Shown: piece after piece, positions 3,477-64,000 of the stretch | How positions within the stretch are numbered: the first letter of the stretch is position 1 | Layout of the letters: each line of letters opens with the position of its first letter | Source: a virus | Lineage: Duplodnaviria; Caudoviricetes | Strand: one strand, 5' to 3' | Virus record (IMG/VR): IMGVR_UViG_3300037440_000399 | Location: 1-64,000 of that record | DNA: 64,000 nt | Program-made: the position numbers and the translations under genes | The notes under the pieces: model-generated | Told to the model about the DNA's origin: nothing | Seen by the model: the letters and a program-made list of their open reading frames with translations, nothing else | Database searches by the model: none

Positions 3477-4099
3477 GGCTTGCGGGGGCGGCCACTCGGT
3501 GTTGTCAGAATGCGTTCCACTGGCCACCCTCTGTGGAAACGCCACAACAGCATTTTGGCACGAACCCCGAGATGCTCGGCCCATTCTTGGACGCAACGGC
3601 TGGTCCCCTGAAATTCAAGCACCACGTTGTATCTCCTGTTGCGGCTTTGCTGCGTTGGATTTGCCCACCTCACATTTCCAGGTTCGTAATCGCCATCATT
3701 GTCGATGCGATCGATCGACATTCCCGGTGGGCGCTCGCCCATGTCAGCGAGAAAATTATCGAAGGACTGCCAGCGGGCGCACACCTGGATGCCGCGCCCA
3801 CCGTAGTAAGCGTAAGGCCGGCTATTTTCACGGGTACACCGATCAAGCATGCCGGACCACGTCTTGTATGTATCGGTGAGTTTGCCGCCCCGGCTGTGCC
3901 CGTGTGTGACGGGGCCGATATTTGCGCAGCCGCAGCTTGTCGACTTGCCGCTGCGAAGATTGTTGCTCTGAACAGGACGTTCCGTGCCGCATGCGCAGCG
4001 ACACATCCAGCGCGTCCTGCCATCCGTCGCATTGGTGGCTGGCCCCAGCACGACCCATCGCCCGTAGCGCGTTCCGGGCACTTCGATTATTCTGCTCAT
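3473..4099 (-). CDS. HNH homing-type endonuclease
   Basis: Motifs WMCRCACG, YGGRGIQVC..W..F..F..DMG, SIDRIDNDGDYEPGNVRWA. AAAGGAGG SD lies before the ATG at 4099. Confidence 0.88.
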   Translation of the reverse strand: MSRIIEVPGTRYGRWVVLGPATNATDGRTRWMCRCACGTERPVQSNNLRSGKSTSCGCANIGPVTHGHSRGGKLTDTYKTWSGMLDRCTRENSRPYAYYGGRGIQVCARWQSFDNFLADMGERPPGMSIDRIDNDGDYEPGNVRWANPTQQSRNRRYNVVLEFQGTSRCVQEWAEHLGVRAKMLLWRFHRGWPVERILTTPSGRPRKP

Positions 4100-4125
4100 C
4101 GTCGATGTCCTCCTTTCAGGACTTC

Positions 4126-4179
4126 GGCCACGCGGGTCGGTCGTGTGACAGCGACGCGACCCGCACTGATTTCTAGCAC
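4126..4179 (-). ncRNA. conserved structured leader/promoter element upstream of HNH gene, copy 1
   Basis: Minus strand GTGCTA-GAAATCAGT-GCGGGTC-GCGTCGCTG-TC-ACACGACC-GACCCGC-GTGGCC. A matching copy at 7768-7820 has a covarying stem. Confidence 0.7.
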
Positions 4180-4197
4180 AGCAACAGTCTGGCAACC

Positions 4198-5238
4198 ATG
4201 CCTAAGTACAGCTTCTTCAGATCAAATACTCGCAGGCTGTCGCACGTGGTGCAGCGTCCGGACTCAACCGGCGCGCTGCAAATAGAGAATCTCTCGGGCG
4301 CTACCCTCAGATTCACCGCGAAACGCAAGCTATCGGATACGTATGCAAGCGCGATTATAAAAAAGCACAGCGGTGTTGATGGAGGGATAGTCATCACTGA
4401 CAGTGCCGCCGGTCTCGCTCAGACACTGATTCTACCGGCAGACACGGTCGCGCTCTGTGTCGACGGAAAGCGCGAGGTGCTCTTCTATGACCTCGAGCTG
4501 GAGACCGCACTTGGCGAGGTCGAGACGACGGAGGCAGGCCAGCTAATCATCGAAGCGGACGTGACGGACGATTTGTCACCCGTCGGCCCGCCCGCCGCGC
4601 CGCCCGATCCGATAACTCCCGGCGTCTTCCTGCAGTACGACGGCACCACGAATGTATGGAGCACGTGGACGCTACCCGAGGAAGTGCTCGCGGGCGACGT
4701 CAACAAGGTCCTGACCGTCACCGCTGCGGGCGTGGTGTCACTGCAGGTCCCGTCCGGCGGGCTAAGTGCTCCCGCAGACCCAGCGGACGACGGCAAGCTT
4801 GCAGTCGCCAGTGGCGGCGACCTCGTCTACTCCACGATCTACGACTCGAGCCCGCTGCACTGGGGCGCCAACGGTCCGGGCACCGGCAGCGGGAGCACGA
4901 ACTATCTCGTGGCTGGCGGCGGCAACACAGCCACGGGCGTCGTTACCGCGGTACCGGGCGTGCACGTCGTCCAGGACGACGGAACGCTGGACATCCTGCA
5001 GGCTCACCACAGCAATCCAACCGGCAGCGCTGTGCTTACGTACACGATCGAGATCAACGAGGTTGCGTCCGCGTTGACGCTGGATTTGTCGACAGGATCG
5101 GTGCAGGGATCGAACGTGGTCAACTCCGTAGCCGTGCTCCGCGGCGATCGGGTGCGTTGTTCCGTGCTCAACCCGGGCGGCACGAACTCAAACATGCGCC
5201 TTGACGTGCAGTGCCGATTCCGCAGGACGGCAACATGA
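4198..5238 (+). CDS. virion structural protein with BppU-like N-terminal domain
   Basis: The N-terminus (TLRFTAKR...GLAQTLILPADT...YDLEL...GQLIIEADVT) resembles baseplate-upper/fibre anchor domains. The C-terminus is beta-rich. Confidence 0.55.
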   Translation: MPKYSFFRSNTRRLSHVVQRPDSTGALQIENLSGATLRFTAKRKLSDTYASAIIKKHSGVDGGIVITDSAAGLAQTLILPADTVALCVDGKREVLFYDLELETALGEVETTEAGQLIIEADVTDDLSPVGPPAAPPDPITPGVFLQYDGTTNVWSTWTLPEEVLAGDVNKVLTVTAAGVVSLQVPSGGLSAPADPADDGKLAVASGGDLVYSTIYDSSPLHWGANGPGTGSGSTNYLVAGGGNTATGVVTAVPGVHVVQDDGTLDILQAHHSNPTGSAVLTYTIEINEVASALTLDLSTGSVQGSNVVNSVAVLRGDRVRCSVLNPGGTNSNMRLDVQCRFRRTAT

Positions 5239-5630
5239 TAATCGCAGTCTACGTGCGCAAGCCGGCGCTGACGGCGATCCTGTTGACGCTGGCGAGCTAC
5301 GAGCAAGTAGCCGTCGCGATCATCGAGGAAATCGTGCTGCGCCGCTTTGCCGACAACCCGGCGGACGCTTGGACGACGGAGATCGCGTACTGGGTGCCGA
5401 CCACTCTCAACACACAGATCCAAGCGGCAACGGCGGTCGACGCATCGACGCTGACGCTCGACGGCGACCCGGTGGCCGTGATTCGCGCCGAGGCAGCCGA
5501 CATCATCCTCGACACGGCGCAGCGTTACCTGACTCGTCGCGGTGCTAGCGGGACGCTCGCACTCGTGCCGGGTATCAGCGCGGCAATCAAAACCGCGATC
5601 AACGACGCGCCGCACGACGCGCCGACGTAA
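5235..5630 (+). CDS. hypothetical protein (possible fibre chaperone)
   Basis: ATGA overlap with the upstream stop; 131 aa. Confidence 0.55.
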   Translation: MIIAVYVRKPALTAILLTLASYEQVAVAIIEEIVLRRFADNPADAWTTEIAYWVPTTLNTQIQAATAVDASTLTLDGDPVAVIRAEAADIILDTAQRYLTRRGASGTLALVPGISAAIKTAINDAPHDAPT

Positions 5631-5632
5631 TC

Positions 5633-5714
5633 CTCTGCCCCGCCTGGACTGGTCGCGGCCCGGGTATGTTGCCCCCTTGCCTTCCGGGGCGCGGCCAGCC
5701 TGGGCGCGGCAGAG
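5633..5714 (+). promoter_or_regulatory. 31-bp imperfect RNA stem-loop before holin
   Basis: Arms 5633-5663 and 5684-5714 pair without bulges (3 mismatches, 3 G-U pairs on the + strand). The GGAG SD starts 5 nt downstream. Confidence 0.7.
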
Positions 5715-5730
5715 CCTTGGAGATCACATC

Positions 5731-5997
5731 ATGTTGTCCAAGATCTGGAAGCGAATCACCAACGAGCCAGCACTCATCCTCGGCGCCGTCCAGGCTGCAC
5801 TCACGCTCGCCGTCGTGTTTGGCGTCAAACTTACGCCCGAGCAGATCGCCGGCGTGCTCACGTTCTCGGGTGCACTGTTGGCTCTCTTGACCAGGCAGCT
5901 CGTCGTTCCGGTCGCGAAGATGCAGCCGGCGCGCACGATCGTGATTCCGCCGCCTCCAGACGACCAGACGCCTCAACCGCCGCAGGCTGCACAATGA
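5731..5997 (+). CDS. putative holin
   Basis: 88 aa with two TM helices (EPALILGAVQAALTLAVVFG; EQIAGVLTFSGALLALL), a GGAG SD, and first position in the lysis cluster. Confidence 0.7.
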   Translation: MLSKIWKRITNEPALILGAVQAALTLAVVFGVKLTPEQIAGVLTFSGALLALLTRQLVVPVAKMQPARTIVIPPPPDDQTPQPPQAAQ

Positions 5998-6356
5998 TAC
6001 GCAAACTACTCGCCCGCATTGTGCGCTACTACGCCCCTGGATTTGCCGTGCTGCTCTGTCTGGGTTGCGCGGGGTCCTTGGAAACCGCCCGCGCCCAACC
6101 CAAGCTCGGCGCCTCGCCGGCAACGGCGGAGAGATGCGATGCGCTCGATGATCGTCGGACGCTGTATGGCGGATTTGCCAAGACGTTCGGTGCGCTCGGG
6201 GCCGGCGCTGGACTCGCAAGTATTCCCGTCGAGGACGAGGGCCTACAGACCGGACTGGCCATCAGTGCGGCCGCCAGCGCGGCGCTTGCCGTTGGGGCGT
6301 TGTATGTCTCGGAGGGCAGCGCCGAAAGCTGGGCTCGGGAGTGTGCCGCTCGATGA
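5994..6356 (+). CDS. lipoprotein-like membrane protein (spanin candidate)
   Basis: Basic N-terminus, hydrophobic stretch and LGC lipobox-like site, plus two C-terminal hydrophobic helices. Confidence 0.55.
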   Translation: MIRKLLARIVRYYAPGFAVLLCLGCAGSLETARAQPKLGASPATAERCDALDDRRTLYGGFAKTFGALGAGAGLASIPVEDEGLQTGLAISAAASAALAVGALYVSEGSAESWARECAAR

Positions 6357-7114
6357 GTCTGGTCAATCGTCTACTGCGGCGCCCTGGTCTCGGATTTCTT
6401 TCTGACCCATTGGACGCCCGCGACAAGCCGCTGGGCGCTCTGCTGGGCACATTCCTCGAGGGCTCGCCGCCACCCCCGAGCGCCAGCGTGCGCAACGATT
6501 CGGTGCGGCCGTACGACCAGGGCGCAAGCTCGAGTTGTACGGGACAGGCGTGGGCCCAGGCTGTGCGTACGACATTGATCCATCGCGGTGTCAACTGCCC
6601 GCCGCTGTCTGCGCTGTTCGCGTACTACGTAAGCCGCGCCGAGTGGGGCGCAGAACGCAAGGACGCCGGCAGTCATCTTCGCACGACGGCAAAAGCGATG
6701 ATGCGTTTTGGATGCGCAGCTGATGCCACGTGGCCCATGGTTGGATTGCGCGTGAACAAGCAGCCTCCCATCGCAGCCTTTCGGAGCGCTTTCGACCTGC
6801 GCGGTTTGCGTGGATATTTTCGCATAGCCGAGGGCGACGTTGATGGCGTCCGGCGCGCGATTGCGAACGGCAACGCGGTCACTGCCGGCTGGAAAATCGA
6901 TCGCGAGTTCCAGCGGCACGACGGCAAGTCTGTGCTCGACGTGCGGCGCGGAACGATCATCGGCGCCCACGCCTGGGTGCTCGAGGATTACGCGGCGGAC
7001 TCGACGTTTGGCATGATCAACAGCTGGTCAGCGTCGTGGGGTGACCAGGGAAGGGCGCGACTAACAGCGGCTTTTGTTGCGCAAGCTCACGATGTTTGGG
7101 CGTGTGCGGCCTAG
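6353..7114 (+). CDS. papain-like cysteine peptidase (C1A family)
   Basis: DQGASSSCTGQA (Gln/Cys), GAHAW (His), INSWSASWGDQG (Asn). Confidence 0.88.
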   Translation: MSLVNRLLRRPGLGFLSDPLDARDKPLGALLGTFLEGSPPPPSASVRNDSVRPYDQGASSSCTGQAWAQAVRTTLIHRGVNCPPLSALFAYYVSRAEWGAERKDAGSHLRTTAKAMMRFGCAADATWPMVGLRVNKQPPIAAFRSAFDLRGLRGYFRIAEGDVDGVRRAIANGNAVTAGWKIDREFQRHDGKSVLDVRRGTIIGAHAWVLEDYAADSTFGMINSWSASWGDQGRARLTAAFVAQAHDVWACAA

Positions 7115-7741
7115 TCGATATGTTGCCACCCTTGACCGCGAATGATGCGTCCTATTGTTTGCCGCGCCACCCCGTACTCGCGCGCCAGACGTGCCGCTGT
7201 CCCTCGTGGACCGTTGGCCACCTCCGAGCGAATGCGTCGGATGGAATCTTCAGTCAGTTTGGCCTTGTGGTGCGACTCGCCAAGGCGCGGCGTCGTACGC
7301 ATGCGCTGGCGCTCCGAGGCTTCGCGCATGTTATCGGTCTGCGTACCGAGATGAAGATGCGACGGGCGAACACAACCGCCTGCGCCGTTGTCGCAGCCAT
7401 GGAGAACACACAGTCCTTCAGGGACAGGGCCATGGGTAACGATCCATGCGAACCGATGCGCCAAAATGTGACCTTCTGAGCCGGCGTTGAAATATCCGTA
7501 TCCGTGTCGGGCCGCGAGCGCCCTCCCAAATCCAGCACCCGTCCGTCTTCCTGACCTTTGGCCAAAAGCGTTCAGCCGCTGGGCCGCGCTTCTGCTTGGT
7601 TTTCCACGGCAACGAGTAGCAGCTCTTGCAGCGGCTGTAACACAGTAGGCGTGTGGCACTACTTTTTTGCCAAAACTCGCGCGTTGCGGGCTTGGTTTCG
7701 CCGCACTTGGGGCAACGCTTGAAAACGATTATTGTGAACAT
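7111..7741 (-). pseudogene. HNH endonuclease split by a single-base frameshift near 7510
   Basis: One frame gives RFWPKVRKTDGCWIWEGARG and the next gives RHGYGYF...AHRFAW...VLHGCDN...CVRPSHL...KLTE. The junction is GGC-C-CGA. Confidence 0.8.
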
Positions 7742-7767
7742 GCTGGGCCTCGCTAGTAACGGGGTTT

Positions 7768-7820
7768 GGCCACGTGCCCGGTCGTGTAGCAGCGACGCGG
7801 GCACACCTGCTTTGTAGCAC
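7768..7820 (-). ncRNA. conserved structured leader/promoter element upstream of HNH gene, copy 2
   Basis: Minus strand GTGCTA-CAAAGCAGGT-GTGCCC-GCGTCGCTG-CT-ACACGACC-GGGCAC-GTGGCC. Confidence 0.7.
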
Positions 7821-7829
7821 AAAATAGCC

Positions 7830-46817: not shown

Positions 46818-47393
46818 ATGTCCAAGCGCACCAAAAGCTACGCCGCAGCGGACCTCGTTGACGTTGACGGCATCAAGACGACGTTCAGCGGCGAAACGAG
46901 CGATCACACGTACGTACCGGCCGATCTCAATGGCGCGCAGGTGCTCACGGGCGGAGTGCTCGACCTACCACGAACGGTGACGATTACGCGCGCCTCGGTA
47001 GCAAACGCCTACTCGACGGATCCTATTGTCGTGACCGGTCGCCGAGGCGGCGACACGATCACGGACAGCATCGCGCAACCTAACGACGACGGTAACGACA
47101 CGCTTCTCGGCGCGAAGCTCTTCGATGTCATCACATCGATTTTCATCCCGGCGAACGCGCTCGGCACAGCGAGCTTTCAGATCGGCGTGGGCGACGTCGG
47201 TGCGCCGGCGGGGACCCGATTCGCCGGTATCCGAGCGCACGACGCTGGCACAATCAATGTGCGTTTCGGCGAGGGCACTTCTGGCGCGCCGACTGACGGC
47301 GTCCCGTTTGCGGCCGGAGACCTACGCTTCGATCCGGTGCAAGCGAGCCGCGTGCTTCGCACGACCACGATCGGCGTGACCGTCTACATCTAA
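46818..47393 (+). CDS. virion structural protein (head decoration-like)
   Basis: Beta-rich ORF between the gpF-like gene and the scaffold. Confidence 0.55.
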   Translation: MSKRTKSYAAADLVDVDGIKTTFSGETSDHTYVPADLNGAQVLTGGVLDLPRTVTITRASVANAYSTDPIVVTGRRGGDTITDSIAQPNDDGNDTLLGAKLFDVITSIFIPANALGTASFQIGVGDVGAPAGTRFAGIRAHDAGTINVRFGEGTSGAPTDGVPFAAGDLRFDPVQASRVLRTTTIGVTVYI

Positions 47394-63222: not shown

Positions 63223-63521
63223 GTCTCTGCGACTTCGCTCTGCCGACGCTCTCGTTGCCGACGCTAAGTATCGCGCTCCCCTCGCTGCCCTCACTCCCAT
63301 TCTTCTCGATCGACCTCGACTTCGACATTCCGCTGCCGACGCTCGCGCTCCCTACACTGAGTCTCGAGCTGCCGTCGTTGCCTGGCCTGCCGATCTTCAG
63401 CATAGACCTCGACTTGCCGGACCTGCCGCAGCTACCGACGCTTGCGCTGCCTACGTTGAGTCTGGAGCTTCCGAGTTTGCCAGGGCTTCCGTTTTTTCGG
63501 ATCGAATGCCCGTTGGATTAG
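63219..63521 (+). CDS. Leu/Pro-rich three-repeat protein
   Basis: Three copies of LPTL(S/A)LPTLS(I/L)xLPSLPxLP(F/I)F.I; Cys near both termini. Confidence 0.6.
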   Translation: MSLCDFALPTLSLPTLSIALPSLPSLPFFSIDLDFDIPLPTLALPTLSLELPSLPGLPIFSIDLDLPDLPQLPTLALPTLSLELPSLPGLPFFRIECPLD

Positions 63522-63889
63522 CGCGGACAGTATTGGTCACGGGTCCATAGGCGTTGTGCGTCCGAGTCGCTTGCGTATTTTGCTAAGCACTCAGCGTGCA
63601 GCCTCGCTGAACTAGCCTTGCACGAGTCGACCGCCCATATCCCCAGTCCGAACAGGACGGCTAGCGCCAGCCCCGTCGTGATCAGGTTCACCCGCAGTTC
63701 GCGCCCGTGCTGGGTATGGGCAGCGGGTAAAAGCGTAGCGAACGGCGATTGCTGCAGCGCGAGCCACTGCCCGCCCGTCTCCGCCTGAACGAAGGCGTCG
63801 ACCATTCCGCCGCGAATCCACCCTGCGATCTGAGACTCGTCCACGGGGCCAACGGTTTCACCGTTTCTGCTGACATACCAGCGCATCAT
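63518..63889 (-). CDS. GYF_2 (DUF4339)-domain single-pass membrane protein
   Basis: WYVSRNGETVGPV......I..G......V......W followed by a TM helix; antisense to the tail operon. Confidence 0.72.
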   Translation of the reverse strand: MMRWYVSRNGETVGPVDESQIAGWIRGGMVDAFVQAETGGQWLALQQSPFATLLPAAHTQHGRELRVNLITTGLALAVLFGLGIWAVDSCKASSARLHAECLAKYASDSDAQRLWTRDQYCPR

Positions 63890-64000
63890 TGGTCCACACA
63901 CTTTCGACAGCACCACGTGAGTCCGTCCGTTACGCAAGCAACGCCGGGGTCAGACGTGTCGTAACCCATGCGCTTGCAAGAGTCCGTGCAGTAGCCTGTG

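Follow-up and report, generated by a model that had tools for sequence, protein, structure and literature searches.

A covarying hairpin behind a promoter-like motif as a candidate expression module of accessory genes in soil phages

The element and its copies in the window

The DNA analysed here, called the window, is the first 64 kb (64,000 nucleotides) of the 74.6-kb IMG/VR virus record IMGVR_UViG_3300037440_000399, which was rated complete by CheckV and whose phage is labelled G000. Two HNH endonuclease genes, HNH-A and HNH-B, lie on its minus strand, and each is preceded by the same short element, in which a promoter-like motif is followed by a hairpin with a bulged C and by the flank GTGGCC (Table 1). 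A first-pass annotation made from the letters of the window had placed the element at 4179–4126 (copy A) and 7820–7768 (copy B). Both copies were present as claimed and far beyond chance expectation. The core GCGTCGCTGnnACACGACC was exact in the two copies, differing there only at the two loop positions, and had no other match in the window; in 100 dinucleotide-preserving shuffles, the mean number of matches was 0.00. The motif TGTGnTAnAAA was found in the window solely at the two element copies, that is, always together with the hairpin. The distance from the copies to the start of the minus-strand HNH open reading frame (ORF) was 26–39 nt. Moreover, folding agreed with the claim that the basal stems are unlike in sequence yet paired, with GCGGGTC/GACCCGC in copy A and GTGCCC/GGGCAC in copy B.

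Against covariance model R1, which describes the hairpin, copy A scored 48.8 bits (E 3.6e-9) and copy B scored 55.1 bits (E 1.1e-10). A third copy in the same phage was found just past the window end, at 64245–64279 (-) of the genome (31.6 bits, E 4.8e-5), with the inner helix GACG/CGUC and the loop CCGUUACA. In addition, a weak match to the hairpin model at 47029–47064 (-) (17 bits, E ~0.1) had no promoter motif and is probably due to chance.

Table 1. Element copies, cassettes and associated genes of G000 (window coordinates)
Feature	Position	Strand	Description
Cassette A insertion, 721 nt	3477..4197	-	HNH-A gene, leader, hairpin, promoter motif and 17 more nt
HNH-A endonuclease gene, 208 aa	3473..4099	-	phrog_374 (1.6e-58), phrog_3377 (1.3e-52)
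Copy A post-hairpin leader	4100..4131	-	GUGGCC flank, small GUCCU/AGGAC hairpin predicted by folding over the Shine–Dalgarno (SD) sequence GGAGGA, spacer, AUG
Copy A flank	4131-4126	-	GTGGCC
Copy A hairpin	4132..4164	-	8-bp basal stem GCGGGUCG/CGACCCGC, bulged C, inner helix GUCG/CGAC, loop CUGUCACA
Copy A spacer between motif and hairpin		-	TCAGT
Copy A promoter-like motif	4170..4180	-	TGTGCTAGAAA; TRTG-type extended -10 and hexamer TAGAAA
HNH-B gene, HNH_3 type, ~210 aa	7111..7741	-	PF13392 HNH_3 (6.3e-10)
Copy B leader	7742..7773	-	GUGGCC, AAACC..., AUG
Copy B flank	7773-7768	-	GTGGCC
Copy B hairpin	7774..7804	-	Basal stem GUGCCCG/CGGGCAC, bulged C, inner helix GUCG/CGAC, loop CUGCUACA
Copy B spacer between motif and hairpin		-	GCAGGT
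Copy B promoter-like motif	7811..7821	-	TGTGCTACAAA
Third cassette, distal part	63518..64000	-	Antisense moron encoding a LAAC lipoprotein and a GYF_2 protein

In the case of HNH-A, no Pfam family was matched, and its stop codon overlaps that of the convergent plus-strand gene in CTAG. HNH-B carries HNH_3 as its sole Pfam domain. The gene is split by a single frameshift near 7513, as tblastn frames +2 and +3 meet at ~7513; its homologues follow one frame to ~7514 and another from ~7512. The break is either that of a pseudogene or an assembly error. The element before the broken gene is still intact and is the same as in the related phage G003. No significant similarity between HNH-A and HNH-B was detected by BLASTP. 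Both genes also fail the GC3-minus-GC2 filter that recovers most genes of the phage, which hints at a foreign composition.

Distribution of the element and the genes behind it

An IMG/VR scan with the exact core turned up true copies in seven more records, representing six distinct sequences, along with two chance matches. A relaxed pattern was scanned against metagenomes and against a single genome from each of 185,579 species of bacteria and archaea. The result was dominated by 136 matches with one common 23S-like flanking sequence, and the phage-like metagenome copies L012, L041 and L126 were also obtained. In the 185,579 species-representative genomes, no copy of the element was found by this pattern scan. 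Two further relaxed exact-pattern scans added just one new copy (L256), and thus the family is rare in IMG/VR. Searches with covariance model R1 recovered diverged copies within the same phage genomes. The 137-kb record G004 (of L007) yielded no fewer than seven copies, whose inner helix is GUCG, GUCAG or GUG and whose loop has 6–8 nt; six different loops were present among seven of them (CUGCUACA, CUAUCACA, CUACUAA, CUUGAACU, CGCUAA and UUGAAG). Altogether, the family comprises ~20 distinct copies on ~10 phage contigs with 62–65% GC, all from soil-type metagenomes. This is a small sample, half of which was found by the exact-core pattern and is thus subject to ascertainment bias. None of the cultured phages carries a copy, and none is closely related to G000. 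When kin of G000 were sought via a tail-region protein, only G003 and one distant record without a copy were found.

The element had not been recognised as a named RNA family in the first-pass annotation, and Rfam gave the same answer. Rfam 15 returned no match at the gathering score over the whole window, none at E <= 10 in the two 3-kb loci around copies A and B, and none at E <= 1 in six further copy-bearing loci. A kinship to 23S rRNA was rejected, as the similarity was treated as a chance match amplified by rRNA conservation. The 23S-like matches lay mostly in genome records of Bryobacterales/Terriglobia metagenome-assembled genomes, and the two such loci checked with Rfam (L024 and L032) were antisense large-subunit (LSU) rRNA. 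The inner stem-loop with its TGGCC flank resembles antisense 23S rRNA ~800 nt into the LSU model (L013–L131 and L132–L216; for example, L024 1057–1085), and the phage loop consensus CUGUUACA is the exact complement of that 23S rRNA loop.

All copies were oriented in the sense of the gene behind them, and the hairpin started 47–90 nt upstream of the ORF start. These genes belonged to several classes. HNH endonucleases of two types followed six copies, TnpB-like nucleases followed three, excisionase/integrase units two or three, and lipoproteins two, one of which is the antisense moron of G000 encoding the LAAC lipoprotein and the GYF_2 protein. One copy preceded the gene of a RadC protein, and several preceded genes of proteins without an assigned function. 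The element had been supposed to serve free-standing endonucleases specifically, and this did not hold, because about half of the copies precede lipoprotein, excisionase/integrase, RadC or unassigned genes. Moreover, many HNH genes in the element-bearing genomes have no element; thus, the link with endonucleases is an enrichment and not a rule. In L349, a 541-aa protein with weak matches to OrfB_IS605 and to Cas12f1-like TNB is encoded at 3805–5430 (-) (83805–85430 of G004). It lies ~250 nt downstream of an element copy, with a long leader or a small ORF in between.

Structure and covariation of the hairpin

The hairpin is 31–35 nt long across the copies, and its constant features are a GC-rich basal stem of 6–8 bp with a closing G-C pair, a single C bulged out of the 5' strand, an inner helix of 3–5 bp and a loop of 6–8 nt. 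Covariation of the stem, which had been proposed from two copies, was borne out on larger alignments. In nine ungapped hairpins, 93% of the cells were paired and eight pairs changed on both sides, and none of 500 shuffles reached the covariation score. In 16 copies aligned by fitting to the covariance model, 97.8% of the cells were paired, 8 pairs had changes on both sides and 40 cells were double changes; again, 0 of 500 shuffles were as good, and slid registers of this alignment paired at 31–43%. The inner helix also covaries, as a U-A pair is compensated by A-U. In contrast, the claim of an invariant 19-nt core was upheld only in part. The core is exact in copies A and B, but the copies found with the covariance model have GACG/CGUC, GUCAG/CUGAC or GUG/CAC helices and loops of 6–8 nt. 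The invariance was largely a product of searching with the core itself.

The pairs in the stems are almost all Watson–Crick. G-U pairs account for ~4 of ~230 pairs, and two A-C mismatches correspond to G-U on the other strand. Because the stems are almost all Watson–Crick and the reverse strand folds at least equally well, neither the strand nor the choice between RNA and DNA can be assigned from the structure.

Two other structural roles were considered and rejected. A pseudoknot in which the loop (GCUAC) pairs with the 3' flank (GUGGC) was rated weak, since it would require melting of the covarying basal stem and no linker is present. Pseudoknot pairing of at least 4 bp was possible in 10 of the 16 copies, and the mean best helix of control windows was ~2.8. 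A better account of the 3' flank is that it forms the 5' arm of another small hairpin, which covaries in the TnpB and G004 copies. In the case of an intrinsic terminator, no U tract was present, the sense flank is GUGGCC, and neither strand was called at copy A or B. On the antisense strand, a U-containing stretch begins 4–7 nt past the stem.

Insertion of cassettes and exchange of ORFs

The copies were located in antisense insertions in late operons (all three of G000 and also those of G001 and G003), at divergent junctions and in gaps between genes of the same sense. The related phage G003 is collinear with G000 over the region, at 66–82% nucleotide identity, and the two were compared at both sites. 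Cassette A is absent from G003, where the flanking plus-strand genes overlap (TAATG). The element is thus a part of the inserted cassette, one edge of which lies 17 nt upstream of the TGTG motif and the other at the HNH-A stop codon. The corresponding genes overlap where G003 has an empty site, so that translational coupling was lost through the insertions. The late plus-strand genes that follow the antisense cassettes (window 4198 and 7830; genome 64301) begin 10–20 nt away from the promoter motif, and none has an evident SD sequence.

At site B, the element is virtually identical in G000 and G003, and the hairpin is completely so. The similarity stops directly 3' of GGCC, the DNA of the ORF is unalignable, and the HNH proteins are 39% identical; the ORF has been swapped behind an unchanged element. 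Furthermore, copy B and phage G001 share a 59-nt stretch of the element with 91.5% identity, while the rest of the compared first 9.5 kb of G000 has no nucleotide similarity to G001. The unrelated HNH proteins and this short match in an otherwise dissimilar phage support the earlier suggestion of a modular element that was not left behind by gene duplication. No protein common to all six fetched phage genomes was found by all-against-all ORF BLASTP. On this ground, and because G004 has six different loops among seven copies, a dedicated phage-encoded factor that reads the loop was rejected.

Promoter-like motif and leader

When the copies were aligned on the stem foot, most had the motif TGTGnTAnAAA, consisting of TRTG, one base and a hexamer, which ended 5–7 nt ahead of the point where pairing begins. 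In one G004 copy, TTGACA-N18-TAGCTT-N7-stem takes its place, with the predicted +1 at the stem foot. The conserved motif strengthens the suggestion, made from two copies, of an extended -10-like promoter. Because a start 6–8 nt after the hexamer would fall at the stem foot, the mRNA would begin with the hairpin. The spacing of 5–7 nt between motif and stem and the arrangement of the TTGACA-bearing copy are both consistent with such a 5'-terminal hairpin.

Promoters of the sigma-54, extracytoplasmic function and phage RNA polymerase types were rejected, as their spacing or key bases misfit on direct reading. A sigma-dependent pause from a TGCTACA repeat in the loop was also rejected, since the loop of copy A, TGTCACA, lacks TA. 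In G004, the copies at 107861(-), 20331(+) and 85683(-) were inspected further upstream, and two or three of them had a GGTCAnCTGACC-like or GGTCA(A/G)CTGACC-like palindrome at about -35, within approximately -40 to -28. The palindrome resembles an operator specific to this genome that overlaps the upstream edge of the module.

Downstream of the hairpin, the leader GGCC-AAACC...GAGAGG...GACGAUG and the first codons are homologous among cassettes for HNH, lipoprotein, RadC and unassigned proteins, and other leader subtypes also occur among the copies. The main hairpin ends 20–50 nt 5' of the SD sequence, and small weak SD hairpins were predicted by folding in some copies.

Interpretation and alternative explanations

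On balance, we consider it probable, with some reservation, that a portable module of ~100 nt, comprising a promoter and a 5'-hairpin leader, serves accessory and selfish genes and that the element forms its 5' part. A -35-independent TRTG-type extended -10 (TGTGnTAnAAA) would start transcription 5–7 nt downstream, and in some copies a TTGACA-N18-TAGCTT pair would take this part. The start would fall at the foot of the GC-rich, bulged-C hairpin, and the mRNA would accordingly begin with a 5'-terminal stem-loop, followed by the common leader, the SD sequence and AUG. It is known that 5'-terminal stem-loops stabilise bacterial mRNAs and that unpaired 5' nucleotides are needed by RppH (PMC3997798). 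The structure would then act in the RNA. The most likely role of the hairpin there is to shield the mRNA against 5'-end-dependent decay, and a further possible role is to isolate the short leader from neighbouring sequence. The result would be autonomous and reproducible expression of a gene inserted among tightly packed phage genes and often antisense to them. The module would travel with, or be captured by, genes for HNH endonucleases, TnpB-like nucleases, excisionase/integrase units, lipoprotein morons and RadC. It occurs in several otherwise unrelated GC-rich soil phages, and it would also act as a joint for ORF exchange. In T4-like phages, conserved cassettes of a promoter and a stem-loop are known (PMC2839356, PMC4122927).

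Several points weigh against this interpretation. At position -7, A stands in place of T in the -10 hexamer, an uncommon feature for primary sigma factors, and a simple sigma-70 scan called no promoter at copy A or B. The roles of promoter and 5' hairpin are predicted ones, and the sample is small and ascertainment-biased, half of it having been recovered with the exact-core pattern. Moreover, the stems are near-purely Watson–Crick and the reverse strand folds at least equally well; the structure could be selected in DNA or on both transcripts, and template switching in quasi-palindromes can generate paired changes without selection on RNA. Finally, the bulged C with its flanking G-C pairs occurs in every copy, and a plain stabiliser gives no reason for it.

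A rival reading takes the hairpin as an operator to which an RNA-binding factor would bind in trans, most likely one encoded by the host, or as a put-like cis-acting RNA that modifies RNA polymerase. In either case, a set of mobile cassettes would come under common control of translation, timing or antitermination. Stem, bulge, stem and loop form the classic shape of protein-binding RNA operators such as the MS2/PP7 coat-protein sites, boxB and the iron-responsive element (IRE). Not only is the bulge with its G-C neighbours present in all copies, but the apical stem-loop is identical in nine copies whose basal stems have wholly diverged. However, these identical cores came from an exact-pattern search and are ascertainment-biased. 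All three loops of G000 fit C-Y-G-Y-Y-A-C-A, whereas loops and inner helices vary widely within G004. Furthermore, a protein common to the six phage genomes is lacking, and no exact-core copy was found in the 185,579 species genomes, so that no host-gene counterpart is known. The operator is thus possible but unlikely. We consider it quite unlikely that a host factor or RNA polymerase reads the bulged-C hairpin and thereby places the mobile cassettes of unrelated phages under one post-initiation control. If true, the cassette genes, namely, those for homing endonucleases, TnpB, integrase/excisionase and exclusion-type lipoproteins, would form a "regulon of selfish genes" that they themselves disperse.

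Alternatively, the structure may act in DNA, as a single-stranded hairpin or cruciform that marks a cassette end and serves as a site of recombination or mobility, with any promoter activity being secondary. Integron attC sites, the end hairpins of IS200/IS605 and exchange mediated by PeSL elements would be the models. Stems that are almost exclusively Watson–Crick and fold on both strands fit this role, as does the position of the element at the boundary of an inserted cassette and exactly at the breakpoint of the ORF swap. The association with TnpB and HNH mobile genes also points in this direction, and PeSL cassettes do recombine (PMC2839356). However, IS200/IS605 requires both ends and attC sits 3' of the ORF, whereas each cassette here has one copy, no similar hairpin was found at the 3' end of any cassette in covariance-model searches of whole phage genomes, and cassette A ends at a stop codon. 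The constant sense orientation, the fixed distance to the -10-like motif and the conserved SD/ATG leader fit expression better than recombination, and no common recombinase was found by ORF BLASTP of the six genomes. A DNA role is therefore decidedly unlikely.

It is very improbable that the selected structure lies on the opposite strand, as a hairpin of the late-operon mRNA that restores processing, stability or translation start of the next gene after insertion. The fold of the plus strand is slightly more stable, and the three G000 copies are antisense to late genes and end 10–20 nt from the ATG of the next plus-strand gene, where no obvious SD sequence is present and where, in the empty site of G003, the plus-strand genes are coupled by overlap. 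However, several copies, such as those at G004 20331(+), 40753(+) and 46459(+) and at G002 4489(+), are co-oriented or divergent and have no opposite-strand gene downstream. In addition, the promoter-like motif and the leader are conserved as read on the sense strand, and the site is not terminator-like. The probability of a chance resemblance or a functionless leftover of local duplication is negligible, as nothing beyond the small sample speaks for it and as the exact core is expected 0.00 times in shuffles, the stems are fully compensated in unrelated phages, and the flanking genes are unrelated.

Comparison with known systems

The closest described system is the PeSL of T4-like phages (PMC2839356, PMC4122927). 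As in the putative promoter-leader module, a conserved ~100-bp unit of promoter, stem-loop, SD sequence and ATG lies there directly upstream of accessory genes or ORFans, allows autonomous expression and coincides with sites at which related phages differ by an insertion, a deletion or a replaced gene. However, the PeSL stem-loop, a terminator or attenuator, precedes the -35 and -10 boxes, separates them or overlaps them, whereas here it lies past the -10 in the predicted transcript and has no U tract. PeSL has -35 and -10 boxes and an AT-rich upstream region, whereas most copies here have an extended -10 only. PeSL occurs ~50 times per genome and flanks cassettes on both sides, whereas 1–7 copies per genome and one per cassette were found here. 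The phages and hosts are also different, and no sequence is in common.

The homing endonuclease genes of the T4 family (I-TevI/II/III, segB and mobE; PMC2988022) are likewise selfish genes with their own promoter and a stable 5' RNA structure. In these genes, the hairpin occludes the ribosome-binding site (RBS), which an internal late promoter frees, whereas here the promoter precedes the whole hairpin and the element is not confined to endonuclease genes. In the case of seg43 of Aeromonas phage 25, the hairpin is reported to lie just upstream of the RBS without sequestering it (PMC2988022). Similarly, the ompA, papA and aprE stabilisers (PMC3997798) resemble the element in that a stable hairpin is predicted at most 1–2 nt from the mRNA 5' end and is followed by a single-stranded SD leader. 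Those stabilisers belong to single genes, not mobile families, and neither a bulge nor an apical sequence is conserved among them; in the present case, the 5' end is a prediction.

HEARO, the omega-RNA of IscB, is also a structured RNA upstream of an ORF with an HNH domain. HEARO is a guide RNA of ~300 nt, and IscB proteins have roughly 400–500 aa. In contrast, the hairpin described here has 31–35 nt, the homing-type HNH proteins have ~200 aa, and no Rfam match was obtained at E <= 10. Membership of the HEARO/IscB group (RuvC plus HNH) was thus rejected, given proteins of 208 and ~210 aa of which HNH-B has only HNH_3 and HNH-A no Pfam domain.

With the IS200/IS605 hairpins and attC, the element shares an imperfect hairpin with an extrahelical base, conservation of structure over sequence and a link to mobile units, and three copies precede TnpB-like genes. 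Unlike them, it has no partner hairpin at the other cassette end and is placed 5' of the ORF, always in sense. No TnpA or IntI was seen. Finally, the MS2/PP7 operators and the bulged-C IRE have a lower stem, a single bulge on the 5' strand, an upper stem of 4–5 bp and a loop of 6–8 nt. The geometry of the element is the same, which is taken as a lead only; the loop sequences do not match those of the operators and vary within one genome, and the likeness is accordingly a candidate one.

Significance

The element is new to Rfam, and as a putative general promoter-leader module it is of a kind known in principle rather than an endonuclease-specific RNA. The motif covaries cleanly, whether as RNA or DNA, and is depositable as a new family; in GC-rich hosts, it may also be of use as an insulated part for expression. 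Homing endonucleases, morons and other genes inserted into phages need to be expressed without upsetting the tightly coupled operons around them. The module would be a compact solution of ~100 nt to this problem, reused by unrelated genes in unrelated uncultured soil phages, at cassette boundaries and at an ORF swap. It would thus extend the idea of mobile regulatory cassettes, as developed for PeSL, past T4-like phages to GC-rich temperate phages.

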